Shown: one piece after another, positions 1 to 64,000 of the stretch
Position numbering within the stretch: position 1 is the first letter of the stretch
Layout: the number at the start of each line of letters is the position of its first letter
Assembly: GCA_031701365.1 (NCBI GenBank)
Contig: GCA_031701365.1_4118.1
Reading direction: 5' to 3' (one strand)
DNA: 64,000 nucleotides
Origin: Escherichia coli
GTDB lineage: Bacteria; Pseudomonadota; Gammaproteobacteria; Enterobacterales; Enterobacteriaceae
Notes under the pieces: model-generated
The model's database searches: none
What the model was told of the DNA's origin: nothing
The model's input: the letters and a program-made list of their open reading frames with translations, nothing else
Position numbers and translations under genes: made by a program

Positions 1-108
1 GAGAAAAAAGGTAAATTGGAACGTGAACGTGCTAAACAGGAAATTGCACAACTTTCCTATGAACTGGAAGACACTCTTCGTGAAATTGCCGAAAAAGCTA
101 ACAAGTAA
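1..108 (+). CDS. 3' end of an upstream gene (partial; EKKGKLERERAKQEIAQLSYELEDTLREIAEKANK*)
   Basis: Open frame from window edge to TAA at 106-108; charged helical tail; followed by hairpin/promoter. Confidence 0.5.
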   Translation, partial: EKKGKLERERAKQEIAQLSYELEDTLREIAEKANK

Positions 109-111
109 TAG

Positions 112-140
112 TTGACATATGAGTGCGTTTTTAATATAAT
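112..140 (+). promoter_or_regulatory. sigma70-type promoter (TTGACA-17-TATAAT)
   Basis: TTGACA 112-117, 17-nt spacer, TATAAT 135-140; 45 nt upstream of ATG 188. Confidence 0.6.
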
Positions 141-163
141 CTTATTGAAAACGCACTCTTTTT
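121..163 (+). terminator. hairpin GAGTGCGTTTT/AAAACGCACTC + T-run, overlapping the promoter
   Basis: Inverted repeat 121-131/148-158 followed by TTTTTAA. Confidence 0.5.
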
Positions 164-187
164 AATGTACAGATAAGGAACTAACTT

Positions 188-877
188 ATGAAACGTCGTC
201 ATATTAGTGTTGATATTGAAGCTCTTGGAACACCTGAACTTTCCGGTTATGATATTATTATCCCAAATTACGCAGCAGTAGTAGTTCCAAGTAAACCTGA
301 AAATGACATTCGTCAGTTCTTATATATTAAATTACCATACCAGGATCAAGTTGCTACTGGTTTAAAATCAGACGCAGGTGCAATGGATTTTTGGATGAAT
401 ACATGTCAGAAAGAATACCCTAATGCATATGCTGAAGTTGCCAGTACTATGAAACTCAAAGCACCTGAACTGTATGGACCGAATGGTCAATCACGACGAT
501 TTTTTGCATACAGTAGTATTGTTGATTTCTGGAAAGAATTACGTTACAATGATTATGGTGAAGAAGTTCCTCATTCAGTCTGGGGCAACGGATGTAACTT
601 CGATTGTAGTATTTTACAAGCAAACCATTTAAAACTAATGAACGCTGGTGAGTTGTGGAAGTATGATGCACCTGAAAATGCACGCACATTGAAACGTTTA
701 TTGAATGAAGAAGCTCGTATTGAAATGGATGAAATCGTTTCGGTACAGTTGGATAAATTTATCACATATGCAAATACGTGTGGGATTAATGGGTTGGAGT
801 TACATCATCCACTATTTGATGCAGCACGTGAAGCAATCCAGATTTCATTCTGTCTAAACAAGCTTAAAATGGATTAA
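188..877 (+). CDS. DEDD-family 3'-5' exonuclease (DexA-like)
   Basis: 229 aa; N-terminal 'ISVDIEALGT' (Exo I D-x-E-like) and later H/D motifs; size matches phage DexA-type exonucleases; RBS AAGGA. Confidence 0.5.
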   Translation: MKRRHISVDIEALGTPELSGYDIIIPNYAAVVVPSKPENDIRQFLYIKLPYQDQVATGLKSDAGAMDFWMNTCQKEYPNAYAEVASTMKLKAPELYGPNGQSRRFFAYSSIVDFWKELRYNDYGEEVPHSVWGNGCNFDCSILQANHLKLMNAGELWKYDAPENARTLKRLLNEEARIEMDEIVSVQLDKFITYANTCGINGLELHHPLFDAAREAIQISFCLNKLKMD

Positions 878-880
878 TAC

Positions 881-1975
881 ATGAATTTCATTATTCTGTT
901 AATACCTGCTCTTATCGTTGTATTCGTTATGAAATACATGTACGATAAGCATATCAGTACTAAAGAACTATTGATTCATATTGGTTGTTGTCTGGTTGGT
1001 GCGGCTCTTGTTCTTGGTATTTCATACGCAATCAACTATAGCCAGCTTTATGATGTTGAGATTCTGAATGGTCAAGTAACTTCAAAATACAGCCACAAAG
1101 AATATTGCACACAATCTAGTTCATGTAAGCACTATACATGGCATGAGAAGTGCCATACGCGATATGATAGTAAAGGTAAATCACATCGTGAGTGTGAATC
1201 ATATAAGGTTTTTGATTACTCATATGAAGTTGATTGGTATGTGAAAAGTACAGTAGGTGAGTTTGAGATTGAACGTGTGAACCGTCAAGGTACAATGACA
1301 CCACCACGTTGGCAGCAAGTTATTATTGGTGACTATGCCGCAGCAGAGAGTTCATATATCAACTATCTATTTGCTGATAAGAACTCATTGTTTAGTCCTG
1401 AAGAACTACACAACATGTATGATGAAAAGTATCTTAGTACTATTCCAGAATACCCAAGTGTAGTTGATTATTACAAAACACATCACGTAATTAACACTAC
1501 AAATTACAACGTTGATGGTTACGATGAATACCTTCGTAATGAGCTAAAAACGATGGGTGCACGTAAGCAGGTAAACATCCAAGTACTAGTATATGATTAC
1601 AAAGATGTGGATTTTGTTGATGCTACCCTTGCATCGTGGCGTGGTGGTAAGAAGAATGATGTTATTATGTTCTTTGGTATTGACAATGATGGTAACGTTG
1701 TTAAATTCAACAGTACATCATTTGCACAAGGAATGAAGAATGAAGAGTTACATGCAAAGATGCGTATTGATGCATTAAATGAAAAATTAACTCTTGACTT
1801 ACTAGTTAAAGAAGTACATAATATTGACAAACATTTTGAGAGACTCTCTAATAAAGAGTTTGAGTACTTGTCAGTTAAAATGGAACCTAGAAAAGATGTT
1901 CTTATCGGTGCTTCCATTGTGTTGTTGATTCTGTCTATTTTTATTGGCCTTTATATGAGGGATAACGATTTATGA
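881..1975 (+). CDS. membrane protein, N- and C-terminal TM helices, Cys/His-rich segment
   Basis: 364 aa; hydrophobic N-terminus and C-terminus; 'CTQSSSCKHYTWHEKCHTRY...HRECESYK' cluster. Confidence 0.55.
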   Translation: MNFIILLIPALIVVFVMKYMYDKHISTKELLIHIGCCLVGAALVLGISYAINYSQLYDVEILNGQVTSKYSHKEYCTQSSSCKHYTWHEKCHTRYDSKGKSHRECESYKVFDYSYEVDWYVKSTVGEFEIERVNRQGTMTPPRWQQVIIGDYAAAESSYINYLFADKNSLFSPEELHNMYDEKYLSTIPEYPSVVDYYKTHHVINTTNYNVDGYDEYLRNELKTMGARKQVNIQVLVYDYKDVDFVDATLASWRGGKKNDVIMFFGIDNDGNVVKFNSTSFAQGMKNEELHAKMRIDALNEKLTLDLLVKEVHNIDKHFERLSNKEFEYLSVKMEPRKDVLIGASIVLLILSIFIGLYMRDNDL

Positions 1976-2526
1976 ATGGTAAACTCCTTGCGTTAATTGG
2001 TATTTTGGTAGTTATCGTACTAATGGTGTTTGGTTCTATTAGTATGTATGTTGGTGCACATGATCGTGCAGTTGAGTTTGAAGGAAACATTAAAAAGTAT
2101 TATGATGCATCAGAAAGTCAACTTAGCAATTATACTCTTACTATTCAAGATAAGGTTCAAGTAGCCGATAAGTATAAAGATGCGTTGAAAGAAACGATTG
2201 AATCATACTTTAAAGGGCGTGAAGGTGTTGACCAGAAGTTTGTAATGTCACAGATTCAACAACAGGTTCCAAATCTTGATCCTAAAATTTATCAGGAATT
2301 GATGGTGACAATTGAAACAGGACGTACAAAGTTCAACAATCTTCAGAAAATGAAAATTGACCAGTGTACTGATTATGCTAAGTTCCGCAAAGGCTTCTGG
2401 AATTCCAAAATTCTTGATTCGAATACGTTTCCAAGTGAAAATATTGAACACCTTTGTACAGTAGTATCTGATACACGTACCAAGAAAGCAATGGATACTG
2501 GTATTCAAGAATCAATTAAACTATAA
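1972..2526 (+). CDS. membrane-anchored protein (single N-terminal TM)
   Basis: 184 aa; ATGA overlap with upstream gene; hydrophobic N-terminus. Confidence 0.55.
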   Translation: MNGKLLALIGILVVIVLMVFGSISMYVGAHDRAVEFEGNIKKYYDASESQLSNYTLTIQDKVQVADKYKDALKETIESYFKGREGVDQKFVMSQIQQQVPNLDPKIYQELMVTIETGRTKFNNLQKMKIDQCTDYAKFRKGFWNSKILDSNTFPSENIEHLCTVVSDTRTKKAMDTGIQESIKL

Positions 2527-2535
2527 TTAAATGTT

Positions 2536-2560
2536 GGGAGTACTTTGTACTCCCCTTTTC
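2536..2560 (+). terminator. rho-independent terminator GGGAGTAC-TTT-GTACTCCC + TTTT
   Basis: Perfect 8-bp stem containing AGTACT half-sites, then T-run. Confidence 0.6.
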
Positions 2561-2573
2561 TATGGGGTGTACT

Positions 2574-3131
2574 ATGTTTTTAAAAAATACTTATGAATTA
2601 ATTAAAATGCTTCAAAATATGAATTCAGGTGGATTGTTTCCCTATTACTCTGAGGATGAAACTCATCGTTTAGTACTTAAATTGGATGAGACTGGACGTA
2701 TTATATCACTAAGAACAACAGTCCCCAGTATAGAACCAGTAATTACCAAATCGACTCAAAATTCAGGAACTGCTGTTCAAACACCACAAATGTACACGAT
2801 TAGCACTCCACCTATTAAACGAGTTGCTTGTATTGTGAATATAAAAGTATCTAAGGACTATCGTGACTTAATATCAGTAGAATGGTCAGAACTAACATCA
2901 TCATTGGCAGCTAATGGATTTGTAGTAACAAATCCAAGTCCAGCACAAAATGTGAAAGAAGGACAACAGATCATGAGTGCATTGTATCTTAGTAATGGTT
3001 GTGTTATCATCAATGGTAAGTTGTATAGCGATGCCGACCCCACTGCATTCACTGAAGATTTGATTAGTGATAAAGAATACAGCATTCTAGAAATTATGAA
3101 TTTGAAAAAGGTATATGAAAACCATGACTAG
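2574..3131 (+). CDS. hypothetical protein
   Basis: ORF track 2562..3131; ATG 2562 lies in the terminator T-run, so ATG 2574 with upstream GGGG is preferred. Confidence 0.5.
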   Translation: MFLKNTYELIKMLQNMNSGGLFPYYSEDETHRLVLKLDETGRIISLRTTVPSIEPVITKSTQNSGTAVQTPQMYTISTPPIKRVACIVNIKVSKDYRDLISVEWSELTSSLAANGFVVTNPSPAQNVKEGQQIMSALYLSNGCVIINGKLYSDADPTAFTEDLISDKEYSILEIMNLKKVYENHD

Positions 3132-3696: not shown

Positions 3697-3698
3697 TT

Positions 3699-4546: not shown

Positions 4547-4817
4547 ATGTTGGGTATGCTTCAAGGTGTTTGATGAAGAATATGAAATAATATTAGATGT
4601 ATTGCCACAGCAGTACATGGTGTGTAATGAAAAATACAAATTGGACACCTACCCGACCCCCAAGTACATGGGAATATGTCCTTTGTGTGATGCAAATGGC
4701 GTGTCCAATAGTGAGATTTCATTCACTAACCAAGCTACAACTAACTGTGTATCTGGGTATATAAGAGAGAATCGAGAATATTTTATTAGGAGATTATATG
4801 AACGACAAAATCTTTGA
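4539..4817 (+). CDS. small Cys-rich (zinc-ribbon-like) protein
   Basis: 92 aa; CxxC ... CxxC pairs (CWVC, CPLC). Confidence 0.45.
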   Translation: MGKCWVCFKVFDEEYEIILDVLPQQYMVCNEKYKLDTYPTPKYMGICPLCDANGVSNSEISFTNQATTNCVSGYIRENREYFIRRLYERQNL

Positions 4818-5028
4818 TACATATGACATCGATACTTTACTAACACCATCTGATAACAGTACTGTTAAAATGGACATGTACTGGATTGTCGTTGATAAAA
4901 AAGTATTTAGACATAAAATTACTAAAGTTTGGCAATGTAATAAAAACAAATCTATTGTTGAAGGATTGGCACAATGCATTCCTAATGCAGAGGTTTTATT
5001 TTTACCATACGCATATACAAAGGAATAA
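4798..5028 (+). CDS. hypothetical protein
   Basis: 76 aa ORF. Confidence 0.4.
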   Translation: MNDKIFDTYDIDTLLTPSDNSTVKMDMYWIVVDKKVFRHKITKVWQCNKNKSIVEGLAQCIPNAEVLFLPYAYTKE

Positions 5029-5029
5029 A

Positions 5030-5191
5030 ATGAAAAAAACTTGGAAAATATTCACAATACCTGCTATAATGTTGTTATTGGCACTTTTCACACCGCAGAG
5101 TCATGTATTGTCTCTTAATATTGTGGAAATAATTCTTCTTGTAATTCACTGTGTCGTGTGTTATAATTATGTAAAAGGTGATAAAGAATGA
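5030..5191 (+). CDS. small membrane protein
   Basis: ATG 5030 after AAGGA; 'MKKTWKIFTIPAIMLLLALF...'; track ORF 4886..5191 trimmed. Confidence 0.4.
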   Translation: MKKTWKIFTIPAIMLLLALFTPQSHVLSLNIVEIILLVIHCVVCYNYVKGDKE

Positions 5192-7782: not shown

Positions 7783-8193
7783 ATGAGTTTAGATTTACAC
7801 AATGAAATAAAATATTTTTTAGATTTGAACATATCAGAATTGAACCACCACGTCAATCATATGACTAGTACTGTATGGTGGTCTAATGAACAAGACGACC
7901 CAATTATCCAACTAAGTGATGAATCGTCAATTATGCGATTTTATAAGATTAATTATAAAAAGAACATCAAGATCACATATGTACCATACAAAAACATACT
8001 ACTAGTCGAAACACTTAATCCAAGTTCTTTATTAAAAATCACCGATTTAGATACATTACAAACAAGTGAATCTTTATTCCAACGTTCATTAGTTGATGAT
8101 CTTGGTGGTATTACTTTTGAAGATATATTACAATTCAAGAAGATGTATAGTGAATTGTTAGAGATTAAAAACACTTTAGTAATGAGGAATTGA
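7783..8193 (+). CDS. FFQ-motif family protein
   Basis: 'SESLFQRSLVDDLGGITFEDILQF'. Confidence 0.6.
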   Translation: MSLDLHNEIKYFLDLNISELNHHVNHMTSTVWWSNEQDDPIIQLSDESSIMRFYKINYKKNIKITYVPYKNILLVETLNPSSLLKITDLDTLQTSESLFQRSLVDDLGGITFEDILQFKKMYSELLEIKNTLVMRN

Positions 8194-8600: not shown

Positions 8601-8978
8601 ATGACTACTATATATGATATTTTGGGTGTTCTGAGTAAAAATATAGATGATGATTTTGTTATTGTTCAAGATACTAGAAATACATTTCAACTACCATTAG
8701 GTTCACCAGATAGGTTAATTTTTAATAGATACTCAAATGAACTAACTTACATCCATGATGGGATTGCAATTGTATCAGTTTCTATAAACGACTATACAAT
8801 ACGATATGTATATGACTTCAACGATTATTGTACAAGAATCCACAGTATTGATATTTCCGAAGAGGAACTATTCCAATTGTCAGTGATTGAGAAAAATGTA
8901 ATAGGAATTACAGAAATTGATATTATTAAAAAAGCATTAAACTATACAAATATAAGAATTAATGGTGGGTGCAGATGA
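8601..8978 (+). CDS. FFQ-motif family protein
   Basis: 'SEEELFQLSVIEKNVIGITEID'. Confidence 0.6.
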   Translation: MTTIYDILGVLSKNIDDDFVIVQDTRNTFQLPLGSPDRLIFNRYSNELTYIHDGIAIVSVSINDYTIRYVYDFNDYCTRIHSIDISEEELFQLSVIEKNVIGITEIDIIKKALNYTNIRINGGCR

Positions 8979-10521: not shown

Positions 10522-11382
10522 ATGAAACCTATCCGAGTACTTTCTCTTTTTAATGGAATGAGTGTGGGATATATGGCATTGCAAGATGCTGGTATCCCAG
10601 TTGAAAAATATTATTCATCCGAAATTGATAAGTACGCAATAGCTGAATCTCAATCTAACTTTCCTGATATTATCCAATTGGGTGATGTAACTAAGTGGAG
10701 AGAATGGGATATTGAGTGGGACAAAATAGATTTATTAATGGGTGGTTTCCCATGCCAAGCTTGGTCAGTTGCAGGTAAACAGGGTGGTTTAAATGATATA
10801 CGTGGGCAGTTATTTTTAGTAATGGTTGAAATTTTTGATCATATCAAAAGTCTCAATCCTAACTTGAAATTTCTGTTTGAAAATGTTAAAATGAAGGAAG
10901 ATTTCAAAGAATACATTAATAGTATTTTAGGAATCACGCCAGTACTGATAAACTCCCAGCATTATACGCCTCACTTCAGGCAGAGATATTACTGGTACAG
11001 TACTGATAAGCTTTTTATACCACCTGCATTATCCAATGCACCTAAACTTCAAGATATTATTGAAGATGGTTGGTACACTGACAGAACCGCTTCGTACTGT
11101 ATAGATGCTAACTATTTTAAAGGTGGTGATTGTAACCAGTACTTTAATAAATCCAGACGACAATTGGTGTTTCGTGACCCAGTGATCAGTCGTCAATATC
11201 TATTAGAGAATGGCAAAAGAAATATTGACTATAGACACTTAAGTGTAGTAGAATGTTGTAAATTACAGGGTGTTCCTGAAGATTTCTTTAAAGTGTCTAG
11301 TAAGACACAAGCATACAAAATGCTTGGGAATGGATGGACTATGCCAGTTATATCACATTTACTAAGAGAGATATTCTTTTGA
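10522..11382 (+). CDS. DNA (cytosine-5)-methyltransferase, orphan
   Basis: 286 aa; motif I-like 'LSLFNGMSVG', catalytic 'GGFPCQAWS' (PCQ), 'FENV' (ENV), C-terminal 'GNGWTMPV'. Confidence 0.75.
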   Translation: MKPIRVLSLFNGMSVGYMALQDAGIPVEKYYSSEIDKYAIAESQSNFPDIIQLGDVTKWREWDIEWDKIDLLMGGFPCQAWSVAGKQGGLNDIRGQLFLVMVEIFDHIKSLNPNLKFLFENVKMKEDFKEYINSILGITPVLINSQHYTPHFRQRYYWYSTDKLFIPPALSNAPKLQDIIEDGWYTDRTASYCIDANYFKGGDCNQYFNKSRRQLVFRDPVISRQYLLENGKRNIDYRHLSVVECCKLQGVPEDFFKVSSKTQAYKMLGNGWTMPVISHLLREIFF

Positions 11383-12120: not shown

Positions 12121-12423
12121 TTGACATTATCTATTGGTCGTGATAAAATCATTTTAAGTAATTTGTCTGAAGAAGAATTCTTTCAAAGAAGTACTATTAT
12201 CGATATGAAAGATTTCACATATGAATCATTGGTTGAACTCAATACACGTTTTAACGATATTCAGGAACGATTGCGACCAATTCTTCGTATCGAAGAAGAA
12301 GCCTGGATTGAAAGTATTAGGAAGATGCAAGAAATGTTGAAAGAAAATATTAACAATCTGGGTAAAGCTACAATGGAATTTGGTAAAACTTTTAAACTGA
12401 ACTTTTTAAAGGATCGTAAATGA
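12121..12423 (+). CDS. FFQ-motif family protein fragment (TTG start in track; possibly fused to 11907..12110 by frameshift)
   Basis: 'SEEEFFQRSTIIDM' near N-terminus; frame open back to 12097 with no ATG. Confidence 0.4.
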   Translation: MTLSIGRDKIILSNLSEEEFFQRSTIIDMKDFTYESLVELNTRFNDIQERLRPILRIEEEAWIESIRKMQEMLKENINNLGKATMEFGKTFKLNFLKDRK

Positions 12424-18041: not shown

Positions 18042-18068
18042 ACCCAGTCAAGTACTGGGTATTTTTTT
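18042..18068 (+). terminator. rho-independent terminator (ACCCAGT-CAAGT-ACTGGGT + T7)
   Basis: Perfect stem and long T-run. Confidence 0.65.
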
Positions 18069-18079
18069 AAGGAAATAAA

Positions 18080-20334: not shown

Positions 20335-20670
<336 letters not shown>

Positions 20671-20671
20671 A

Positions 20672-20854
20672 ATGACACACGAAGAATGGATGTCCAAACA
20701 GCATAAAGAACATGACTGCTTTGGGAATGGTATTCGTCAGGTACATTATGATATTCTCAAAGATATAAATTTATTCATAAAATATGTTTTGGATGAAAAT
20801 AAACATTGGTTTATATATGAGATTGCATATAGAAACTCAAATAAACAAAAATAA
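20672..20854 (+). CDS. MTHEEW-family mini-protein
   Basis: Starts MTHEEWM; ends 'HWFIYEIAYR' like the 20153 copy ('HWFIYELAIR'). Confidence 0.45.
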   Translation: MTHEEWMSKQHKEHDCFGNGIRQVHYDILKDINLFIKYVLDENKHWFIYEIAYRNSNKQK

Positions 20855-20868
20855 ATAAGGAATATATT

Positions 20869-21087
20869 ATGGAAACAACGTTATTTGAAGTTATTCAAGC
20901 ATTAAAAACTGGTGATGACATTCAAGTATTGCTACATGGTTATCGTTTAAAAGGCACTGTGGTTTTAGTTAATGACACAACGTTAGTTATTGCCGAAACA
21001 AATCCATATGATAGTAATCAAGTTGCTAATATCCATATTGATATTAAAAGCATTATTGGTGTAGGCGTAAATAAAAATCAAGAATAA
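20869..21087 (+). CDS. hypothetical protein
   Basis: 72 aa ORF. Confidence 0.45.
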   Translation: METTLFEVIQALKTGDDIQVLLHGYRLKGTVVLVNDTTLVIAETNPYDSNQVANIHIDIKSIIGVGVNKNQE

Positions 21088-21165
21088 CAAATGTTTTTGA
21101 AAAAACCAGAAAATGAATGATTTTTTTGGGACAACTCAAAAATATATGATATAATAATTAGTACA

Positions 21166-21255
<90 letters not shown>

Positions 21256-21259
21256 ATAT

Positions 21260-21361
<102 letters not shown>

Positions 21362-21364
21362 AAC

Positions 21365-21487
21365 CATGACGCATGAAGAATGGATGAATGACATTAATTT
21401 TAGATATGCAGGTTTCGGTAACTGGAGAAAGTATCATTGGGAAATCATGTCAGACCCAGCAGAATACGATAAACTTATAAACCATGA
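21365..21487 (+). CDS. MTHEEW-family mini-protein
   Basis: 40 aa starting MTHEEWM. Confidence 0.35.
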
Positions 21488-21526
21488 AGCGTATCCGTGG
21501 TTCTTTATTGAAATAATGGTACGAAC

Positions 21527-21692
<166 letters not shown>

Positions 21693-21700
21693 AAAAAAAG

Positions 21701-21733
<33 letters not shown>

Positions 21734-21734
21734 A

Positions 21735-22114
<380 letters not shown>

Positions 22115-22171
22115 CTAAATAATTCAGTACTGAGAATATTAATATGTTTAAAGATGAACGTCCAGATTTGT

Positions 22172-22209
<38 letters not shown>

Positions 22210-22214
22210 GAATT

Positions 22215-22557
22215 CCACAATCAGACGTATATGGTGTAAGTTACGTCGATGCTATCCAGAACAAGATCTCTGGTACTCTAGGAAGTGGTGAATGTTAACC
22301 TAGACGGGTTTGATAATTGGACGATAGGCAATTATTACTTGACTAGCAGGTTGAAACTAGAGGTGACAGTCCTTCACCAAACTGGAAAACCGGATGGACT
22401 TTTATTTAAAAGGGTAAGGCGTGGAAATATGTTTACAGAAGTTGCTTTTAGTAGCCTGTACGCACCACGTCAAGGTAGCCGAAAGGTAAGTTAAAACGGG
22501 TGGTTATAAAGCTGAATTAACAGCGGCGTTTAAAAGCGTCACCATCCATTTTTTTTT
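22215..22557 (+). ncRNA. candidate small stable RNA inside the tRNA cluster
   Basis: ~340 nt without a convincing ORF, higher GC, promoter directly upstream, ends in a T9 run (22549-22557). Confidence 0.3.
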
Positions 22558-22573
22558 AATTAAAGTTGGCAAT

Positions 22574-23067
<494 letters not shown>

Positions 23068-23070
23068 TAC

Positions 23071-23226
<156 letters not shown>

Positions 23227-23247
23227 CATAAACAATGAGAGGTATAA

Positions 23248-23765
<518 letters not shown>

Positions 23766-23805
23766 CAGGGGAGGTTGTGATTCCCGATTCAGTAGTTTTA
23801 AAGCT

Positions 23806-23914
<109 letters not shown>

Positions 23915-24075
23915 AGAGGTACTTAGAGTATACTCAGTTCACCTTTAGCTAAAATGGTCACGGTAGAATATTGTTGCAACAGTATTCAGTACTACTTTTT
24001 TAATTGACATAACTTTGAATGGAGTGTATTATGTTCCAAGAAGAAAACTGGGGTTTTTAACATAACGGGGAATGT

Positions 24076-24218
<143 letters not shown>

Positions 24219-24261
24219 AATGCGAAAGAGTATGGAGACTTGTTGGTTATCTTACTTCCTA

Positions 24262-24350
<89 letters not shown>

Positions 24351-35658: not shown

Positions 35659-36624
35659 GTGAAAAAGCTTGATTTAAATACAATTGCCGAAGAAGTTCTG
35701 GATGAATGTTTTGCTAATGAAGAAGTCAACACACTAGAAGCCTTAGATTTCGTTGAAGATAAAGATGAAAATGAAGGTAAAGTACAAAGCAGTTTCAAAT
35801 ATAATATTACACTTAAGCGACCACCAAATGTTTCCAATGAAGATCTAATTCGTGATATTCAAGCTGGTATCAATGTAAAGAAAAACACTGAACTGTTAGT
35901 TCGTTACAATTATGGACTTATTATTGATGTAGCAAGTAAATGTACTTGTTATATCCCATTTGAAGATAAGATTTCATATGGTGTTGAGGGGTTCATGAGA
36001 GCACTAAAAACCTTTGATCTTAATAAGAATGTTAAGTTCATTACCTATGCTTCTTCTAGTATTTACATGACAGTTTATAACGAAAGTTCTGACGCTAACT
36101 ATATGGTACACTTCCCACGTTATATGAGTGTTCATAAGATCAAAGTAAAAAGATTCTGTCAGGAATATATGCGTAAACATGGTGTTCGCCCAACTCCTGA
36201 AATAATCTCAGAGGGTACTGGGATTGAGATTCAGCATGTTAATAACTGTTTGTTATTTCAAAGCGAATACACTTCTCTGGATGCACCATTAGACGGTGTT
36301 ACCGATGGTACACTAGGTGACATTATTCATTCACCTGCTTCTGATTTTAACCTCAATGTTGATAGTATCCGTGCACCTTTACGTTATGCTATCAATGAAC
36401 TGACCAACGAATTGAGTACTAAAGAACGTGAGATTATCCAGCGTGTTCATGGTCTAGGTGAATATGAACCTGAAACGCTTCGTGAGATTGCTGATAATGG
36501 TTTTGTTGATGATAATGGAAAATATGTTAAATCCCGTTCATCAATACACCGAAAGTACAGTGAAGCTATGCAAAAGCTTAAGAAGCTAGTACTTGCAAAA
36601 GGGTACGAATACGAAGATTTCTAA
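35659..36624 (+). CDS. sigma-70-family RNA polymerase sigma factor
   Basis: 321 aa, GTG start after AGGAG; region-2-like 'YGVEGFMRALKTFD...FITYASSSIYMTV', region-4-like 'LSTKEREIIQRVHGL...ETLREIA...SRSSIHRKYSEAMQKLKKL'. Confidence 0.6.
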   Translation: MKKLDLNTIAEEVLDECFANEEVNTLEALDFVEDKDENEGKVQSSFKYNITLKRPPNVSNEDLIRDIQAGINVKKNTELLVRYNYGLIIDVASKCTCYIPFEDKISYGVEGFMRALKTFDLNKNVKFITYASSSIYMTVYNESSDANYMVHFPRYMSVHKIKVKRFCQEYMRKHGVRPTPEIISEGTGIEIQHVNNCLLFQSEYTSLDAPLDGVTDGTLGDIIHSPASDFNLNVDSIRAPLRYAINELTNELSTKEREIIQRVHGLGEYEPETLREIADNGFVDDNGKYVKSRSSIHRKYSEAMQKLKKLVLAKGYEYEDF

Positions 36625-39006: not shown

Positions 39007-39034
39007 TTGACAGAAGATATCAGTACTGTATAAT
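39007..39034 (+). promoter_or_regulatory. CAGTACTG-class promoter (TTGACA-16-TATAAT)
   Basis: 'cttgacagaagatatcagtactgtataatgtttatatcaa'. Confidence 0.6.
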
Positions 39035-39079: not shown

Positions 39080-39358
39080 ATGTCTTTTTCTAAAGAAGAA
39101 CGTGACCTTATTAAAAAAGCAATCTGGTTTTATGCTAATGAAGGGAAGTGCGATGAAGAAAAAGCACGTGAACTGTGTAATATCTTTGAGAAGAAACAAG
39201 ATCTAAAAGTGTATCGTATCCGTGATTTGGATGAAGGGGATCGTATTGTCCTAGCTGAAACAAAAGAAGAAGCAGAACAAATCTTCACTGATAAAAACGA
39301 AAATCCACATTGGATGGAAGAAGTCTGTGATGTTAAAAAAGGTACTTATATCGATTGA
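39080..39358 (+). CDS. hypothetical protein
   Basis: ATG 39080 with AGGA RBS; stop TGA embedded in next promoter -35. Confidence 0.5.
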   Translation: MSFSKEERDLIKKAIWFYANEGKCDEEKARELCNIFEKKQDLKVYRIRDLDEGDRIVLAETKEEAEQIFTDKNENPHWMEEVCDVKKGTYID

Positions 39359-39383
39359 CAGTACTGAATAATAGCAGTATAAT
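39355..39383 (+). promoter_or_regulatory. CAGTACTG-class promoter (TTGACA-17-TATAAT)
   Basis: 'ttgacagtactgaataatagcagtataatgtttatatcaa'. Confidence 0.6.
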
Positions 39384-43100: not shown

Positions 43101-43330
43101 TACTAAGTTTTGTTGTTGCACTATTGTTTATGTTTTATCCTACACTAGTAGCATTAGCCACTAAACGACCGATTGTAGATATTACTACTGTATTCTTGCT
43201 AAACGTGGCATTAGTACTGGTTTCTATTATCATTCCCGTGAGCTTTACTGTTATTGATATTGTGTCGGTATTACTCTTCGTAATCAGTTATCTTATGCTT
43301 ATTGAAGAAAAACCAGTTGACAACCATTAG
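43091..43330 (+). CDS. small membrane protein
   Basis: 79 aa, two TM. Confidence 0.5.
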   Translation: MYLVLSFVVALLFMFYPTLVALATKRPIVDITTVFLLNVALVLVSIIIPVSFTVIDIVSVLLFVISYLMLIEEKPVDNH

Positions 43331-43344
43331 TAGTACTGTATAAT
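43317..43344 (+). promoter_or_regulatory. CAGTACTG-class promoter (TTGACA-16-TATAAT)
   Basis: 'ttgacaaccattagtagtactgtataatgg'. Confidence 0.55.
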
Positions 43345-44901: not shown

Positions 44902-45093
44902 ATGTTGATTTATCAAGGTGATAATATTCGTGTTATGCAGCATCCCTACTTACAAATCTTTGATGTGCAGCAGTATATGGAAGGTGATGACCCAAGAACC
45001 TATGGTCGTAAGTATGATTACTTCACTGTAAAGCAGTGTAAAAATATTAACGAAGTACGACAATTAGTTCAAGAACTTCAAAACAAAGGTTGA
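44902..45093 (+). CDS. hypothetical protein
   Basis: ATG 44902; stop TGA inside the PeSL stem/-35. Confidence 0.45.
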   Translation: MLIYQGDNIRVMQHPYLQIFDVQQYMEGDDPRTYGRKYDYFTVKQCKNINEVRQLVQELQNKG

Positions 45094-45119
45094 CTTCGGT
45101 CAGCCTTTTTTGTTATAAT
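45086..45119 (+). promoter_or_regulatory. PeSL-like cassette: hairpin AAGGTTGAC-TTCG-GTCAGCCTT + T-run fused to promoter (TTGACT-18-TATAAT)
   Basis: Stem contains the -35; TATAAT 45114-19. Confidence 0.65.
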
Positions 45120-45147
45120 TCTATTAATAAATTAGAGGATTTTAATT

Positions 45148-46563: not shown

Positions 46564-46785
46564 ATGAAATATATAGTACTTGTACTGATATTATTCAGTA
46601 CTGTTGTAAGTGCTAAACAAAAAGAATATATTAAATGTATAAATTATGAAGAGAAATATGTTGAAACATATAAAAAAAGTATAATTAAAAACGTTTCGAT
46701 TACTAACAGAGCAACAATCATTGTACTTAAAAATGGGTTAATTATGCTATATAAACCACACGTTAAATGTGAAATTATTAATTGA
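46564..46785 (+). CDS. small secreted protein
   Basis: 'MKYIVLVLILFSTVVSA|KQ'. Confidence 0.5.
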   Translation: MKYIVLVLILFSTVVSAKQKEYIKCINYEEKYVETYKKSIIKNVSITNRATIIVLKNGLIMLYKPHVKCEIIN

Positions 46786-46792
46786 GGAAAAT

Positions 46793-47365
46793 ATGAATCG
46801 TAAAGGTCGTTTTAAAGTATCAAAAAAGAACAAAAGTTCTAGGTTTAAACCTATTGTTTTAACAGTTAAATCTAACAAAGAATTAACTGCACTTAGTAAA
46901 AAGATAATTTCATCTAAGATTGAAGTATCATACGTAAATTCATTAAAATATATGAATATAAAACCACTGGACAAACTCATTTCACTTATATTTCAGCGTA
47001 ATGATTTTGAGATATCAGTAGATGATTATAGAGCCTATAATGCTGGTTTCATTAATGTTACTTGTAATAAAAAGCTAACTGAGTTGGAAAACTTGTCATG
47101 TATAGTAAATCTAGATAAAGGTGTAGTGAAATACAATTTTGTACATTTTACTAATATTAATAATGGCATGGGTGTACAATCCAGACCTATAGTACCTACA
47201 TGTGATGTTACTAAATTAGCAAAGCTCAATGATGAAGAATATTTTCAAGAAAGTATTGTGACTGAGCATTTAGATGATATAATAGCTACTTACAAAGAGT
47301 GTATATGGGTTTTGAATGCTATAAAGCCTAAATTGTGTTTAATGAATATTGTTCGTGATTTATGA
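46793..47365 (+). CDS. FFQ-motif family protein
   Basis: ATG 46793 after GAGGA; 'DEEYFQESIVTEHLDDII'. Confidence 0.55.
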   Translation: MNRKGRFKVSKKNKSSRFKPIVLTVKSNKELTALSKKIISSKIEVSYVNSLKYMNIKPLDKLISLIFQRNDFEISVDDYRAYNAGFINVTCNKKLTELENLSCIVNLDKGVVKYNFVHFTNINNGMGVQSRPIVPTCDVTKLAKLNDEEYFQESIVTEHLDDIIATYKECIWVLNAIKPKLCLMNIVRDL

Positions 47366-53666: not shown

Positions 53667-53694
53667 TTGACAAACACATTCAGTACTGTATAAT
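53667..53694 (+). promoter_or_regulatory. CAGTACTG-class promoter (TTGACA-16-TATAAT)
   Basis: 'gttgacaaacacattcagtactgtataatgcttatcaa'. Confidence 0.6.
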
Positions 53695-56441: not shown

Positions 56442-56448
56442 AAAATAA

Positions 56449-56482
56449 AGGGTTGACAGTAGTCATCCCTTTTTGCTATAAT
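56449..56482 (+). promoter_or_regulatory. PeSL-like cassette (AGGGTTGAC-AGTA-GTCATCCCT + T-run; TTGACA-18-TATAAT)
   Basis: Directly upstream of denV; shares 'ctttttgctataat(c/t)atttcatc' with copies 7 and 8. Confidence 0.65.
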
Positions 56483-56510
56483 CATTTCATCGAAACGAGA
56501 GGATGAAAAC

Positions 56511-56961: not shown

Positions 56962-57177
56962 ATGATACTTGACACTTCTAGATACAAGTTTTCAAACAAC
57001 CAGAACACAAATAGAACACACACCATGAAATGGTGGTTGAGACATCGTGATAAGGTTTTGAACACACACACCGTATCAGAACTTATCTCGGCAATTATAG
57101 AATTAAGCGATGATGATTGTGTTGAAAACAATATATATAATTTATGGAATGATTATATTAACATAACTAAGGGTTGA
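56962..57177 (+). CDS. hypothetical protein
   Basis: 71 aa. Confidence 0.45.
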   Translation: MILDTSRYKFSNNQNTNRTHTMKWWLRHRDKVLNTHTVSELISAIIELSDDDCVENNIYNLWNDYINITKG

Positions 57178-57203
57178 CTTCGGTCAGCCCTTTTTGCTAT
57201 AAT
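57171..57203 (+). promoter_or_regulatory. PeSL-like cassette (GGGTTGAC-TTCG-GTCAGCCC + T5; TTGACT-18-TATAAT)
   Basis: ~45-bp identical to copy at 59198. Confidence 0.7.
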
Positions 57204-57229
57204 TATTTCATCAACACAAGAGGTAACAA

Positions 57230-59182: not shown

Positions 59183-59197
59183 ATATGTTTATAAAAA

Positions 59198-59230
59198 GGG
59201 TTGACTTCGGTCAGCCCTTTTTGCTATAAT
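59198..59230 (+). promoter_or_regulatory. PeSL-like cassette (GGGTTGAC-TTCG-GTCAGCCC + T5; TTGACT-18-TATAAT)
   Basis: Identical to 57171 copy through 'gctataattatttcatcaac'. Confidence 0.7.
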
Positions 59231-59258
59231 TATTTCATCAACTGATGAGGATAACGAA

Positions 59259-60038: not shown

Positions 60039-60070
60039 TTGACAGTACTACCATCGTGTAGTACTATAAT
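60039..60070 (+). promoter_or_regulatory. AGTACT-containing promoter (TTGACA ... TACTATAAT)
   Basis: 'gttgacagtactaccatcgtgtagtactataatggg'; exact -10 ambiguous. Confidence 0.45.
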
Positions 60071-60096
60071 GGGAGTATAATCTGCGGAGAAGAAAT

Positions 60097-61123: not shown

Positions 61124-61458
61124 TGGAGTACTTTATTGATTTACTTCCGTGGTATATGAAAGTTAGTACCATGTACTATATTATTAGTGCTGGATTCTAC
61201 TTTCTGATGTGGTTCTTTAAACGACCAATTTCAGTATTCATCGCTGATAACATGCTGCAATTAAAATTACATGTATGGTTCTTGGCTTCTATGATTATGC
61301 CAACTATTCACTACTCGCTAATTAGTAGAGGGTTTCGTTCTAATGGTGAACCTGTAGTGCTTGTATTCTATTGGGTTTCAACTATAGTATATATTGGACT
61401 TTTTTTGTTGCCAGTGGTTCATAAATTACGTTCTAAAGTTCCTGATGCGAGGTACTAA
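61120..61458 (+). CDS. small 3-TM membrane protein family, member G
   Basis: 'WFFKRPISVF'; C-terminal 'RSKVPDARY'. Confidence 0.6.
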   Translation: MMEYFIDLLPWYMKVSTMYYIISAGFYFLMWFFKRPISVFIADNMLQLKLHVWFLASMIMPTIHYSLISRGFRSNGEPVVLVFYWVSTIVYIGLFLLPVVHKLRSKVPDARY

Positions 61459-61772
61459 TGGATATAGTAACATTGATTTACACGTTGTATTCATTCTATT
61501 TCATTATGTGTTGGGTTGGATTTTTATTTGTACTCAAGATGTTTGATTATGTTGAAAAACAGATAAAAGAATTTTGTATTCCTTTTATCGGTTCAACCAT
61601 TATTAGTGTTTCTTGTGTGTATTTTTTGGTTTTTGATCCACCAGATAACACTGCAATGATTGACTTGATGTTACTACCAACAACTGTTACTTTTTTATGT
61701 AGTCTGATGCCGCCGATTAGCCGTGGACTAACAGAATTTAGACGCAATCAAAAGCGTAAACGAGGGATGTAA
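61458..61772 (+). CDS. small membrane protein family, member H
   Basis: 104 aa; basic C-terminal tail. Confidence 0.55.
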   Translation: MDIVTLIYTLYSFYFIMCWVGFLFVLKMFDYVEKQIKEFCIPFIGSTIISVSCVYFLVFDPPDNTAMIDLMLLPTTVTFLCSLMPPISRGLTEFRRNQKRKRGM

Positions 61773-62140
61773 TGGAAATTGCTCTTATTATCTTAACTGC
61801 TATGTTGTTTATTAGTACTGTGGTTATAATTGGTAAATTCTTTTGTGTATCATTTTTAGAAACGGTATACGATGAAATTGCTGATGATTATGAACTACAA
61901 GCCGGATTTTTCATTACGTATTGGCTTAGTTTATTTTGTCTAGTCATTGCTTGGATTTTACATATCTTTAAATGGGGTATGGTAGACGGTGATCCTATTA
62001 TGGCAATTATTGTTCTAGTGTTTGGTATCCTTGGTGGTGCAGTGCATAATCTAATGGTTATCTGGCAAACTGTTCAATATGTTTTGGTTCCCTATTTCGA
62101 AAAGATGCACAGTACAATTAAAAAACGTAAACGAGGTTAG
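61772..62140 (+). CDS. small membrane protein family, member I
   Basis: 122 aa; basic tail 'KKRKRG'. Confidence 0.55.
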   Translation: MEIALIILTAMLFISTVVIIGKFFCVSFLETVYDEIADDYELQAGFFITYWLSLFCLVIAWILHIFKWGMVDGDPIMAIIVLVFGILGGAVHNLMVIWQTVQYVLVPYFEKMHSTIKKRKRG

Positions 62141-62141
62141 T

Positions 62142-62504
62142 ATGAACGGGATAGAATTATCTTTCGTTGGTCAATTACTAGTAATGGCGTATACATTTAT
62201 ATTCTCACTGAATGCATTCGTGTGCATTGGGAAGTACTTCCATAAGCGACCATTATCAAATATATATGATGTAATCCAAAAGAGATATAGTCCAGCATAT
62301 ACTGTGTTGGGTACAGTATTCAATTTTGGTTTTATTGTATTAATAATTGGACTGTTCACATCATCTTTGAATACAATAACCTTCGGTCTTATGATATGTT
62401 CATTGGTATTAGCAGTAATTATATGTTGTTTAGTACTGCACCTTGTGGTACTATTGTATATAAAGATCTCTGAAATCCACCAACGTTTGGGTATGAGGAA
62501 ATAA
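62142..62504 (+). CDS. small membrane protein family, member J
   Basis: ATG 62142; 'GKYFHKRP' after TM1. Confidence 0.55.
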   Translation: MNGIELSFVGQLLVMAYTFIFSLNAFVCIGKYFHKRPLSNIYDVIQKRYSPAYTVLGTVFNFGFIVLIIGLFTSSLNTITFGLMICSLVLAVIICCLVLHLVVLLYIKISEIHQRLGMRK

Positions 62505-62505
62505 T

Positions 62506-62877
62506 ATGAGTTACCGTGAGATATTTTCCATTATTTCAATTATTATGTTCAGTACTGGAACACTGGTATGGTTATTATACTTCTTCTGTATTAATCCAGT
62601 GTATAATATGTTATGTAATATTAAATCAAGTGCCGGATATATCACTTTTATGGTCTTTATGGGATATTATTGTCTAAGCATTTTAGGTGTTGTTTTGGTT
62701 GTTATATTTGATGTGGGACCAAATAGTGATGGTATGGAAATACATGAATTAATAACCATGTTTGGATGTATGATACCAACAGCACTACTGTTTGTAGCTA
62801 CTGGTAGTGGATTGATAAAATTATATAATTATTTAAAATCCATTCATAATTCCATTCATAATAAGCGTATGTCATAA
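62506..62877 (+). CDS. small membrane protein family, member K
   Basis: 123 aa; 3 TM; basic tail. Confidence 0.55.
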   Translation: MSYREIFSIISIIMFSTGTLVWLLYFFCINPVYNMLCNIKSSAGYITFMVFMGYYCLSILGVVLVVIFDVGPNSDGMEIHELITMFGCMIPTALLFVATGSGLIKLYNYLKSIHNSIHNKRMS

Positions 62878-62918
62878 TAAAAATCCAGTACTATTAAGTA
62901 CTGGATGTATAAGGAGTT

Positions 62919-63581
62919 ATGATGAAATCAAAATTAGGTTTGTTTTATAAAAACTATTTTGTTAAACAACGTAAATTTATAAAAAAATATTTCTCTGGCG
63001 AGAAGTCTAGTCCTATAATCTTTAAAAGACCAAGTTATAATACTTACTTAGCTGGTGCTAAACAGTCTAAGAAATTTATTACTCTTTTACATAAAAACAA
63101 AATTAAAGCTTCTTATGTTGAAACGAGAAGAAACTCATCAATAACTCCTGGTGATTTTATTGAGTACGGATGTTTCAATATTAAGTACAATGATAATACA
63201 TACTTTATGGATATTGATTGTAATACATCCAATCTTTTTAACATTGTAGTAAATCCATTAAAACAATATAATGTTTATGGTGATTCTATTATCAAATTAA
63301 TCAAAAACAAAGATAGCTTTGATTTTGAAATAAATGTTTTAGATGATAATTTTGACGAAGTACCAGTAAACCCTGAAATCTGTGATATTTTAAACAGTTT
63401 AAAAGGTAGTACCTACAATATATCATCTGATTTAATGTTTCAGTACTCATTAATCCATAAAGATATTGAAAAGTATATTGAATGCTCCAAAATTTTGAAT
63501 TATCTTTACGATGAATTTAAAAAGAGTTCTAAAATAACCGCATACACTTTGTACAATATTCCTAAAATGGTGAATCTTTGA
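62919..63581 (+). CDS. hypothetical protein (AT-rich)
   Basis: 220 aa; preceded by AGTACT palindromic hairpin 62883-62910. Confidence 0.5.
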   Translation: MMKSKLGLFYKNYFVKQRKFIKKYFSGEKSSPIIFKRPSYNTYLAGAKQSKKFITLLHKNKIKASYVETRRNSSITPGDFIEYGCFNIKYNDNTYFMDIDCNTSNLFNIVVNPLKQYNVYGDSIIKLIKNKDSFDFEINVLDDNFDEVPVNPEICDILNSLKGSTYNISSDLMFQYSLIHKDIEKYIECSKILNYLYDEFKKSSKITAYTLYNIPKMVNL

Positions 63582-64000
63582 CAAATACAGTACTGGCAAC
63601 TCCACCGTCTGTAATATATTGTCCAGTACTGTAAATTTGTATACCATCGGTTAAGTAAGTTCTGTATAAAGTTGCTGTAACATATACGTTATTCATATTC
63701 ATCTCTATTGGTAGTACACATTTGGTATAGGCTGAGACATCTGTTTGTGTACCTATACCTAATTGACCTGCGTTATCGCCTGTGTTATAACCAGTTGCGT
63801 AAACACCTAATGAAGTTATAATATGATTAGAAAAATATGAATAACCCACACTGCTTCTTATTATATCACCTGGTGCTTGTGTTGTTTGTCTTAACGAAAT
63901 ATATGTTTGTGATGTAGAACCATTTGCTAACTGACCAAAGTATTGTCCACCACCATGATATGCAAATAATTTATTAGTACTATTATTATTTGCTATAGCA
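63562..64000 (-). CDS. tail-fibre/adhesin-like late protein, C-terminal part (partial; 5' end beyond window)
   Basis: Minus-strand frame open from 63562 to the window edge; G/Y/T/S-rich ('GGGQYFGQLANGSTSQTYISL...GYNTGDNAGQLGIGTQTD'); convergent with plus-strand genes. Confidence 0.5.
   Translation of the reverse strand, partial: AIANNNSTNKLFAYHGGGQYFGQLANGSTSQTYISLRQTTQAPGDIIRSSVGYSYFSNHIITSLGVYATGYNTGDNAGQLGIGTQTDVSAYTKCVLPIEMNMNNVYVTATLYRTYLTDGIQIYSTGQYITDGGVASTVFVKDSPF

Follow-up and report, generated by a model that had tools for sequence, protein, structure and literature searches.

The 64,000 nt stretch analysed here over its full length (hereafter the window; Escherichia coli assembly GCA_031701365.1, contig GCA_031701365.1_4118.1) is 95–98% identical to the ∼350 kb Asteriusvirus jumbo coliphages (121Q, PBECO4, G17, Sharanji, phAPEC6), and its genes are nearly all small, early and encoded on the plus strand. 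At a G+C content of 33% the commonest hexamer of the window is AGTACT, which outnumbers every word made up of A and T only: we counted 167 copies (2.6 per kb), distributed evenly at 7–17 per 4 kb. Our best reading of these sites is that AGTACT is a lineage-specific highly iterated palindrome (HIP) of the RaK2-like jumbo-phage clade. For whole-genome counts we used the 350 kb of the close relative EC22.5-2 (OR845138.1), an unannotated record with 594 open reading frames (ORFs).

The excess turned out to be larger than the original prediction had estimated (∼150 sites for 20–25 expected). Dinucleotide-preserving shuffles of the window (n = 100) contained 17.6 ± 4.5 copies with a maximum of 31, and none of the 100 reached 167. 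The expected number is 21.6 for a zero-order model, 17.9 for Markov-1 (9.3-fold enrichment) and 32.7 for Markov-2; with the Markov-3 background, against which the excess had been proposed to be judged, 63.3 copies are expected and AGTACT receives the highest z-score of all 4096 hexamers (z = 13). A Markov-4 model predicts 135 copies, a figure that is circular, as this model is built on the pentamers AGTAC and GTACT, which are themselves dominated by AGTACT. In the genome of EC22.5-2 we found 913 copies where 100.7 are expected under Markov-1 (9.07-fold), again rank 1 of the 4096 hexamers, and the runner-up among the palindromic hexamers reaches just 1.55-fold.

The surroundings of the hexamer are symmetric as well. 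C stands at position -1 in 73 of the 167 window sites and G at position +1 in 80; G at -1 (18 of 167) and C at +1 (10 of 167) are rare. Further out the flanks are T-rich at -2/-3 and A-rich at +2/+3, which gives the extended consensus ttCAGTACTGaa, and the commonest octamer context is CAGTACTG with 38 copies. GTACTA and TAGTAC occur 63 and 62 times, i.e. there is no strand bias. With its perfectly palindromic core and symmetric flanks AGTACT thus lacks the asymmetry of oriented words like Chi, FtsK-orienting polar sequences (KOPS) or the uptake signal sequence (USS); a mild asymmetry is confined to phage GAP32 and to the temperate prophages described below. One-mismatch neighbours are mildly over-represented (1.2- to 2.3-fold) rather than depleted, and the half-site AGTAC reaches ∼2- to 3-fold over expectation. 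We considered GTAC as the real core and rejected it, because CGTACG and GGTACC have 0 copies, the other xGTACy words are neutral or missing and AGTACT alone is strong. Very-short-patch (Vsr-type) repair at the cytosine was also rejected, since neither AGTATT nor AATACT is under-represented and relatives differ from the window at each of the six positions.

AGTACT is held ∼10-fold above expectation by a force that acts on the double-stranded DNA sequence, and not on proteins, codons or RNA. In agreement with the original prediction, sites are found in every reading frame (56, 33 and 42 in-gene sites) as well as in non-coding DNA. Shuffling synonymous codons, with proteins and codon usage kept, leaves 30.4 ± 5.1 of the 131 in-gene sites, and shuffling the codon order leaves 20. 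Ser-Thr dipeptides are written AGT-ACT in 56 of 106 cases (14.8 expected by codon usage), TAC is used in 31 of 35 xAG-Tyr-Txx contexts (30% elsewhere), and 129 of the 305 positions at which the protein would permit AGTACT through synonymous codons are occupied (∼40%; 30 expected). As the synonymous shuffles retain only 30 of 131 sites and the occupancy in the frames exceeds the expectation from codon usage, codon-pair bias, which had been named as the finding that would overturn the claim, is excluded; codon usage and tRNA supply as causes are ruled out by the same shuffles and per-frame occupancies. The force is strong enough to skew amino acid dipeptides: Ser-Thr (106 vs 70 expected) and Val-Leu (157 vs 110) are in excess, and the reversed dipeptides are not.

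AGTACT sites are also preserved at synonymous and non-coding positions beyond the background. Against phage CMSTMSU (84% nucleotide identity), 78 sites could be aligned. Of these, 55 (70%) are kept, compared to 43% for all hexamers, and 23 and 32 sites are private to one or the other genome, with differences at all six positions. Third-codon positions are 87.0% identical within sites and 70.6% outside (Fisher p = 3e-5), non-coding positions 95.1% within and 86.4% outside. Over greater distances, i.e. in seven core genes from five genera (∼71% amino acid identity), 25 of 43 site columns are common to at least two genomes, and where the partner genome has the same amino acids it also has AGTACT in 144 of 217 cases (66%).

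Phage genomes are textbook cases of palindrome avoidance, and the contrast with this behaviour, which the original prediction had pointed out, is sharper than claimed. In EC22.5-2, 23 of the 64 possible hexamer palindromes are missing entirely (expectations of up to 48 copies), among them CCATGG, TGGCCA, GCATGC, CTGCAG, GGTACC, GGATCC, GTCGAC and CTCGAG; AGCGCT has 0 copies too, and the tetramer GCGC is missing altogether (0 vs 180 expected), as it is in the window. EcoRI, EcoRV, NdeI and ACGT-containing sites are tolerated at ∼1-fold, which hints at selective protection by phage methyltransferases. AGTACT is enriched in each genus sampled from the RaK2-like clade (5.6- to 18-fold): 6.0-fold in the core genes of 121Q (E. 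coli; single-copy conserved genes), 9.1-fold in CMSTMSU (E. coli), 12-fold in K64-1 (Klebsiella), 18-fold in GAP32 (Cronobacter; 5.1 sites/kb), 5.6-fold in Munch (Salmonella), 7.5-fold in fHe-Yen9-04 (Yersinia), 7.9-fold and 8.5-fold in pEa_SNUABM_12 and Hallingskeid (both Erwinia) and 11-fold in XaC1 (recorded host Xanthomonas). The sampled genera have the flank rule in common, G being disfavoured at -1 and C at +1. The force has thus been active through the diversification of at least seven genera. By contrast, the more distant MIJ3, a Pseudomonas phage of equal G+C content whose terminase is 43% identical, has 3 copies for 11.8 expected (0.25-fold), T5 has 1 for 8.8 and FelixO1 has 4 for 11.1; the latter two handle AGTACT as a restriction target to be avoided. 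The E. coli K-12 chromosome carries 0.26 AGTACT per kb, about the zero-order expectation. As AGTACT is in excess in the clade, depleted in MIJ3, T5 and FelixO1 and neutral in E. coli, the enrichment is a property of the phage clade, and we rejected both a general trait of AT-rich enterophages and inheritance from the host.

With respect to their arrangement along the DNA, the sites are spaced nearly exponentially (coefficient of variation 0.85–0.93; 0.72 in core genes), which indicates that it is the density of AGTACT that matters and not a regular placement; genome-wide in EC22.5-2, 20 and 40 bp are the most frequent short inter-site distances, visible as small peaks. The density climbs as coding constraint drops: it is 3.5/kb in non-coding and 2.4/kb in coding DNA of the window, 4.7/kb and 2.4/kb in EC22.5-2 (where 790 of the 913 sites lie within genes), and peaks at 7.6/kb among the tiny early ORFs of 121Q.

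A subclass of sites is placed precisely. The window contains 41 near-consensus sigma70 promoters, 39 of them on the plus strand, and about 8 of the 41 carry AGTACT, starting 7–8, 18 or 28 bp before the -10 hexamer (Table 1). The promoter class with AGTACT in the -35/-10 spacer that the original prediction described therefore exists (offset -7), and it extends to relatives. Between 116 and 166 kb of 121Q, 23 of 33 promoters carry AGTACT (offset -7, n = 12; -27, n = 10; -17, n = 2), and 12 of 19 do so in GAP32 (offset -7, n = 8; -27 to -29, n = 11). Two boxes exactly 20 bp apart, in the arrangement AGTAC-TTGCAA...AGTACT-N-TATAAT, are frequent in GAP32 (e.g. at 7788) and also occur in 121Q. The centres of the promoter sites fall at about -36.5, -26.5 and -16.5, i.e. 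in 10 bp steps on one helix face, and this architecture is common to genera whose promoter sequences otherwise differ. Promoter and terminator signals use AGTACT without accounting for its abundance: only about 56 of the 913 sites (6%) in EC22.5-2 lie in promoter contexts and 790 lie in genes, so that most copies are found outside such signals and an origin of the excess in promoters or terminators was rejected. Three hairpins had been listed as terminator stems. The stem at 18042-18068 folds well (z = -3.3) and is followed by a U-run, and the stem at 2536-2560 is plausible, being the centroid structure; the one at 62883-62910 also folds well (z = -5.2) but has no U-run. The 14- and 16-bp palindromes reported at 23749 and 23868 are present. 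Their self-folding is weak. Should there be a binding protein, they and a partial copy near 23984-23997 would be its likeliest high-affinity sites.

Table 1. Positions of AGTACT-bearing elements and related genes in the window
Feature	Position	Strand	Remarks
AGTACT array, 167 sites	1..64000	.	Coding DNA in three frames and non-coding DNA; context ttCAGTACTGaa
Hairpin GGGAGUAC-UUU-GUACUCCC, then U-rich stretch	2536..2560	+	AGTACT at 2539; centroid structure
Small-protein family EEE[YFL]FQxS[TL]V, members	8601-8978, 12121-12423, 21761-22114, 46769-47365	+	
C5 cytosine DNA methyltransferase	10522..11382	+	PF00145, E = 7.5e-38; judged an unlikely recogniser of AGTACT
Intrinsic-terminator-like hairpin AUACCCAGU/ACUGGGUAU with U7 run	18042..18074	+	AGTACT at 18051 spans loop and 3' arm; -13.7 kcal/mol, z = -3.3
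Early promoter TTGACT-N16-TATAAT	21702..21729	+	AGTACT 21717-21722, 7 bp before -10, centre about -16.5; offset also in 121Q and GAP32
Two-box early promoter	22176..22209	+	Boxes 20 bp apart: 22176-22181 overlaps first T of -35 (AGTAC-TTGACT), 22196-22201 in spacer
Three extended palindromes, non-coding tRNA-rich stretch	23749..23997	.	ATTCAGTACTGAAT 23749-23762; TATTCAGTACTGAATA 23868-23883; partial copy ∼23984-23997
Early promoter TTGACA-N16-TATAAT	39007..39034	+	Spacer AGTACT 39022-39027, offset -7
Early promoter, AGTACT abuts -35 (TTGAC-AGTACT)	39355..39383	+	AGTACT 39360-39365, offset -18
Early promoter	43317..43344	+	Spacer AGTACT 43332-43337, offset -7
Early promoter	53667..53694	+	Spacer AGTACT 53682-53687, offset -7
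Hairpin from two AGTACT copies (UCCAGUACU-AUUA-AGUACUGGA), no U-run	62883..62906	+	-14.3 kcal/mol, z = -5.2

A second, unrelated lineage carries a related motif. We scanned IMG/VR for three AGTACT copies at short gaps; most matches were chance hits or tandem repeats, and the informative ones belonged to jumbo phages or to four isolate-genome contigs of ∼30 kb. In these four, AGTACT ranks first or second among the hexamers, and they encode a lambda-type portal and a GpA terminase. Their homologues are ∼33 kb prophages of low G+C content (35–40%) with a serine recombinase, residing in chromosomes of Klebsiella, Salmonella, Enterobacter and E. coli; members include those on Klebsiella sp. Ap-873 contig JAADCL010000004.1 and on E. 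coli ABZDMV010000001.1. GTACTA is enriched ∼5-fold in 4 of 4 prophage loci examined, with a strand bias of ∼2:1; AGTACT itself is strong only in the E. coli (59 vs 9.8 expected) and Klebsiella (37 vs 7.4) prophages, and the Salmonella and Enterobacter prophages prefer CGGTACTA. A strand-specific, Chi-like TGGTGGT was seen in the temperate prophages only. We found no structural or replication genes common to these prophages and the jumbo clade. A shared gene for a recogniser was looked for and set aside, since only a lysozyme and a small-protein family turned up, and neither a methyltransferase nor a recognisable DNA-binding protein. One of the ∼30 kb AGTACT-rich contigs encodes (positions 4672-5121) a GH24-type lysozyme that matches a lysozyme-domain protein of the jumbo phages (EC22.5-2 210852-211340) with E = 7e-41, which points to gene exchange between otherwise unrelated AGTACT-rich phages. 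The small proteins (phrog_13866 and related families) have an invariant C-terminal motif, EEE[YFL]FQxS[TL]V, written with varied codons; 15 strict and 38 loose paralogues are found among the ORFs of EC22.5-2. Database matches to the family are restricted to contigs of jumbo-phage size (∼350 kb), enterobacterial chromosomes, where they presumably represent the low-GC prophages, and short unassigned contigs. The GTACT-core motif of the prophages suggests either a mobile recognition function with an evolvable specificity or mimicry by the prophages.

Our literature search returned no earlier account of AGTACT enrichment in these phages, nor of iterated palindromes in any phage. The closest parallel is cyanobacterial HIP1, itself of unexplained function. 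Like HIP1 (GCGATCGC) and the alternate cyanobacterial HIPs, AGTACT is a short palindrome that is many-fold over-represented, at about one per gene or more (PMC4390886, PMC5861425); it occurs both inside genes, whatever the frame, and in the DNA separating them, irrespective of peptide or codon usage, is conserved among related genomes beyond the background, and in the HIPs, too, deviant copies most often carry a single mismatch at an outer position. It differs in being carried by a virus clade while the host genome is neutral, in being an A/T-rich 6-mer, in coexisting with the total loss of 23 other palindromic hexamers and in occupying fixed, helically phased positions in early promoters. HIP1 shows a long-range periodicity of 10–90 kb, and its conservation was argued to favour selection over biased repair (Xu et al. 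2018, PMC5861425). HIPs furthermore have cognate orphan methyltransferases (PMC4390886), whereas for AGTACT such an enzyme remains a candidate (PF05869, see below). What is new here is thus a HIP in a virus, with another sequence, accompanied by the complete loss of many palindromes and by a promoter-phased subclass. USS, DNA uptake sequences (DUS) and Chi occur about once per kb, lie in coding DNA, affect peptides, often form inverted repeats in terminators and perhaps spread by molecular drive. AGTACT resembles them in its terminator hairpins, its presence in coding DNA and its effect on peptides, but USS and Chi are asymmetric words whose action on single strands (uptake, RecBCD) depends on their orientation, whereas AGTACT is palindromic and belongs to lytic phages with no uptake step. 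The sequence is also the target of ScaI and Eco255I, a type II palindrome that is depleted in other enterophages and 9- to 18-fold enriched here; we identified no restriction endonuclease and no cognate methyltransferase for AGTACT in the phage.

The original prediction had proposed a recognition site for a DNA-binding, modification or transcription function. Much of this proposal stands, as the signal acts at the DNA level, is symmetric, conserved, bound to the clade and phased in early promoters; its suggested link to the C5 methyltransferase of the window does not. Since the 8- to 12-bp context ttCAGTACTGaa is symmetric and some sites sit in early sigma70 promoters, we infer that AGTACT is recognised by a putative homodimeric factor, which would be encoded by the phage or move among these phages. 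The mechanism that we prefer, if tentatively, is a phage DNA-binding regulator or nucleoid protein for which the promoter boxes serve as operators and the density of all sites as a mark of self. Such a factor would bind the promoter boxes and thereby control early transcription, most simply by shutting it off. The ∼900 further copies would give the phage DNA a site density ∼10 times that of host DNA, so that an abundant binder would load preferentially onto the phage, and this sequence-based self-mark could serve to organise, protect or regulate the replicating genome. As a restriction target shunned by other enterophages, AGTACT must also be shielded, through methylation or occupancy. A working analogy is TF1 of SPO1, an abundant phage protein of the HU family that prefers phage DNA, has preferred sites in early promoters, where it turns off early transcription, and is required again at a later stage of infection. 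The mechanistic likeness is a hypothesis and no membership is claimed: TF1 recognises hydroxymethyluracil DNA, and the jumbo clade would use an iterated sequence motif instead. Regulators of the KorB/ParB type, which combine operator and genome-wide roles, are analogous to the supposed factor and not its relatives.

Several observations weigh against this mechanism. No homologue of HU/TF1 was found among the 594 ORFs of EC22.5-2, so that we set aside an HU/TF1-like phage protein as the reader, and no homologue of SlmA/TetR was found in the window and the fetched fragments of relatives, the full 350-kb genome not having been searched for it. More generally no candidate AGTACT-binding protein emerged, most of the genes searched, among them early genes of the prophages and large ORFs of the window, being without a family assignment in PHROGs and Pfam. 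The near-exponential spacing would look alike under a mutational or gene-conversion drive, and the continuous re-creation of sites by a drive could also yield excess conservation. The promoters of one genome are partly paralogous, so that the repeated offsets are not independent events. Finally, unrelated temperate prophages bear the related GTACT-core motif with no shared DNA-binding gene detected, and a purely clade-specific factor is therefore insufficient. The resemblance of AGTACT to LexA and TrpR half-sites was considered and provisionally set aside on account of the arrangement.

A broader version of the proposal, which we consider possible although doubtful, takes the whole array as a sequence-encoded mark of self that is read by a dedicated phage protein or by a modification enzyme. 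The ∼10-fold density of a single palindrome would tell phage DNA from host DNA, and the factor would coat, organise or shield the genome and would, through the phased operator boxes, also time early transcription, in jumbo phages that have neither a nucleus-like compartment nor wholesale base substitution. The prophage motif would then be a horizontally moving recognition module, or a mimic of the mark.

Among the alternatives, the main one is that AGTACT is the target of a phage methyltransferase and has been amplified by methyl-directed biased repair or gene conversion, following Elhai's model for HIPs; we regard it as somewhat unlikely. In heteroduplexes formed by T4-like recombination the methylatable allele would overwrite the variant, with or without a function; methylation would explain why ∼900 ScaI-type sites are tolerated, and could make the promoter boxes sensitive to methylation. 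A 6-bp palindrome is typical of type II and orphan methyltransferases, the avoidance of AGTACT by other enterophages implies that some protection is required, and random spacing with higher density in less constrained DNA suits a drive. RaK2 DNA is cut solely by methylation-insensitive enzymes (PMC3622015), and HIPs co-occur with cognate orphan methyltransferases (PMC4390886). The EC22.5-2 genome has one amino-methyltransferase ORF only (motif NPPY, 173 aa), a Dam-like member of family PF05869 that lies at 91151-91672, corresponds to 121Q gp417 and is conserved beside a cytidyltransferase in all enriched genera; a search for homologues gave no Pseudomonas record at E < 1e-25. Of the two phage methyltransferases (the DNMT3-like C5 enzyme and the Dam-like one) this enzyme is the better candidate if AGTACT is methylated. 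However, PF05869 enzymes are usually of the GATC type. No MutH- or Vsr-like partner was found in a search that was not exhaustive, the one-mismatch neighbours are not depleted and the differences from relatives at all six positions do not favour directed repair, and the motif-bearing prophages show no methyltransferase in the 22 kb examined. The excess conservation seen here is moreover of the kind that Xu et al. used to argue for selection over biased repair in HIP1 (PMC5861425). The model hence fits the random spacing and the protection from ScaI well and the excess conservation less well. It does not exclude a DNA-binding regulator, for which methylation could be the shield. The C5 enzyme itself, in which the original prediction saw a possible partner of AGTACT, is a bona fide methyltransferase (Table 1); AGTACT offers one cytosine per strand, and the gene is also present in Asteriusvirus, Hallingskeid and RaK2-like Klebsiella phages. 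Over its full 286 residues, however, its best solved relatives are the catalytic domains of DNMT3A/B/C, which methylate CpG and have a minimal target-recognition domain; HaeIII and HhaI come next. Bisulfite sequencing of RaK2 located m5C at CpG (PMC3622015), but in AGTACT the cytosine stands before T (CpT). In CMSTMSU the orthologue (20545-21373) is broken over three frames and AGTACT is 9.1-fold enriched all the same; this record is flagged UNVERIFIED, so that the split may be a real pseudogene or a sequencing error. ICP1 and phi92-like phages, for which abundant AGTACT is not known, have homologues with 44–51% identity. On the indirect evidence of its full-length match to DNMT3, the CpG methylation of RaK2 and the split gene of CMSTMSU with its unchanged enrichment, we consider the C5 enzyme to be probably CpG-specific and a link to AGTACT highly improbable.

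A host protein might read the sites instead, SlmA foremost, with the phage DNA activating or titrating it and so blocking division. The SlmA-binding sequence (SBS) of E. coli, GTGAGTACTCAC, has AGTACT as its core, and SBSs are, like the phage sites, palindromes for a dimer dispersed over a genome (PMC3020112), though at ∼50 per E. coli chromosome against ∼900 AGTACT per phage genome. The enriched phages are almost all on Enterobacterales, the Pseudomonas relative is depleted, a second unrelated lineage in the same hosts has a related motif, and cells infected with the close relative Sharanji become filamentous, with their DNA dispersed along the cell and no division inhibitor known (PMC11895373). 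Against this, SlmA depends on G1, T2 and a purine as the third base and allows the central position 6 to vary (PMC3020112), whereas in the phage sites T is preferred at position 1 and C at position 3, G is rare at -1 and C at +1, and the central TA is held strictly. The window sites thus do not carry the SBS flanks, and at least four of six flank matches occur in 5 of 167 sites, at or below chance. AGCGCT has 0 copies, XaC1, isolated on Xanthomonas, is 11-fold enriched, T5 and FelixO1 deplete AGTACT on the same hosts, and the CGGTACTA favoured by prophages of Salmonella and Enterobacter disrupts the A4 on which SlmA depends. With these flank requirements unmet, and with no SlmA-like gene in the window and the relatives' fragments (the 350-kb genome not searched), SlmA was rejected as the reader and a direct role is unlikely. 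Still less probable is a replication or recombination signal (a T4-type primase template or a loading or nicking site) that is palindromic to serve both fork directions. The clade has a T4-like primase, a gp41-like helicase, UvsX/Y/W and topoisomerase II, the palindrome is equal on both strands, and random spacing would fit a need for density rather than position. Yet known phage and bacterial primases read trinucleotides, for which no enrichment is needed, 2.6–7.6 sites per kb are far above the needs of priming, and the fixed promoter positions are left unexplained; MIJ3 has a homologous primase without the motif, and the motif-bearing prophages lack a comparable replisome in the regions seen. 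That the excess is a mere by-product of promoters, terminators, codon or codon-pair bias, tRNA supply, paralogous repeats or composition is the least credible of all the readings. Some sites do lie in promoters and terminator hairpins, the phage encodes tRNA-Ser(GCU) (anticodon gct, AGY codons) and tRNA-Thr (anticodon tgt), and the sites are densest where many small paralogous ORFs have promoters resembling one another. This explanation is refuted by the enrichment that persists from Markov-1 to Markov-3, by the protein- and codon-preserving shuffles (30 vs 131), by the occupancy of permitted positions and by the location of the sites (∼6% in promoter contexts, 790 of 913 in genes and in all three frames), and the single-copy core genes are enriched 6-fold as well. 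The host-factor, replication-signal, C5-methyltransferase and by-product readings accordingly rank below the models of a DNA-binding regulator and of a methyl-directed drive.

The clade is extreme in avoidance (23 hexamers and GCGC at zero), yet one classical restriction site is its commonest hexamer, and the phage needs a dedicated shield for ∼900 ScaI-type sites. A strong and long-lived selection or drive on the DNA sequence distorts codons and dipeptides in hundreds of genes. 121Q, PBECO4, Sharanji and phAPEC6 thus offer a small, fast-evolving and tractable system for studying HIP function, a question that is 30 years old for HIP1, and the motif provides a handle on the organisation and protection of DNA and on early-gene shut-off in jumbo phages that do not form a nucleus. 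AGTACT can also serve as a one-line diagnostic of the clade in metagenomes, and it is relevant to the recoding and engineering of these phages.

Further features of the window and its relatives were noted. The late genes in the core region have T4-type promoter motifs (TATAAATA), and the window encodes a sigma70-family factor of 321 aa (35659-36624, plus strand) with regions 2, 3 and 4 (PF04542, PF04539, PF04545). A cassette, aagggTTGACTtcggtcagccctttttgcTATAAT, is repeated at 45085-45125, 56448-56488, 57169-57209 and 59196-59236; its -35 hexamer lies inside a GC-rich hairpin that is followed by a T-run, such that terminator and promoter overlap, and it is because of this cassette that TCGGTC and CTTCGG have high z-scores. 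In 121Q, ∼14 tandem paralogous minus-strand genes between 116 and 131 kb are annotated as RCC1-like 'regulator of chromosome condensation' and probably encode beta-propeller proteins; the density of AGTACT in this block is ∼3 per kb, as elsewhere. Six tRNA genes (Gly-TCC, Ser-TGA, Ser-GCT, Met, Asn and Thr-TGT) form a cluster at 20357-24340, and the AGTACT at 20384 falls in the anticodon arm of tRNA-Gly. The segment 23740-23800 within the cluster resembles a degenerate tRNA, with a T-arm-like GGGAGGTTGTGATTCCC and the 14-bp palindrome in place of the anticodon arm.

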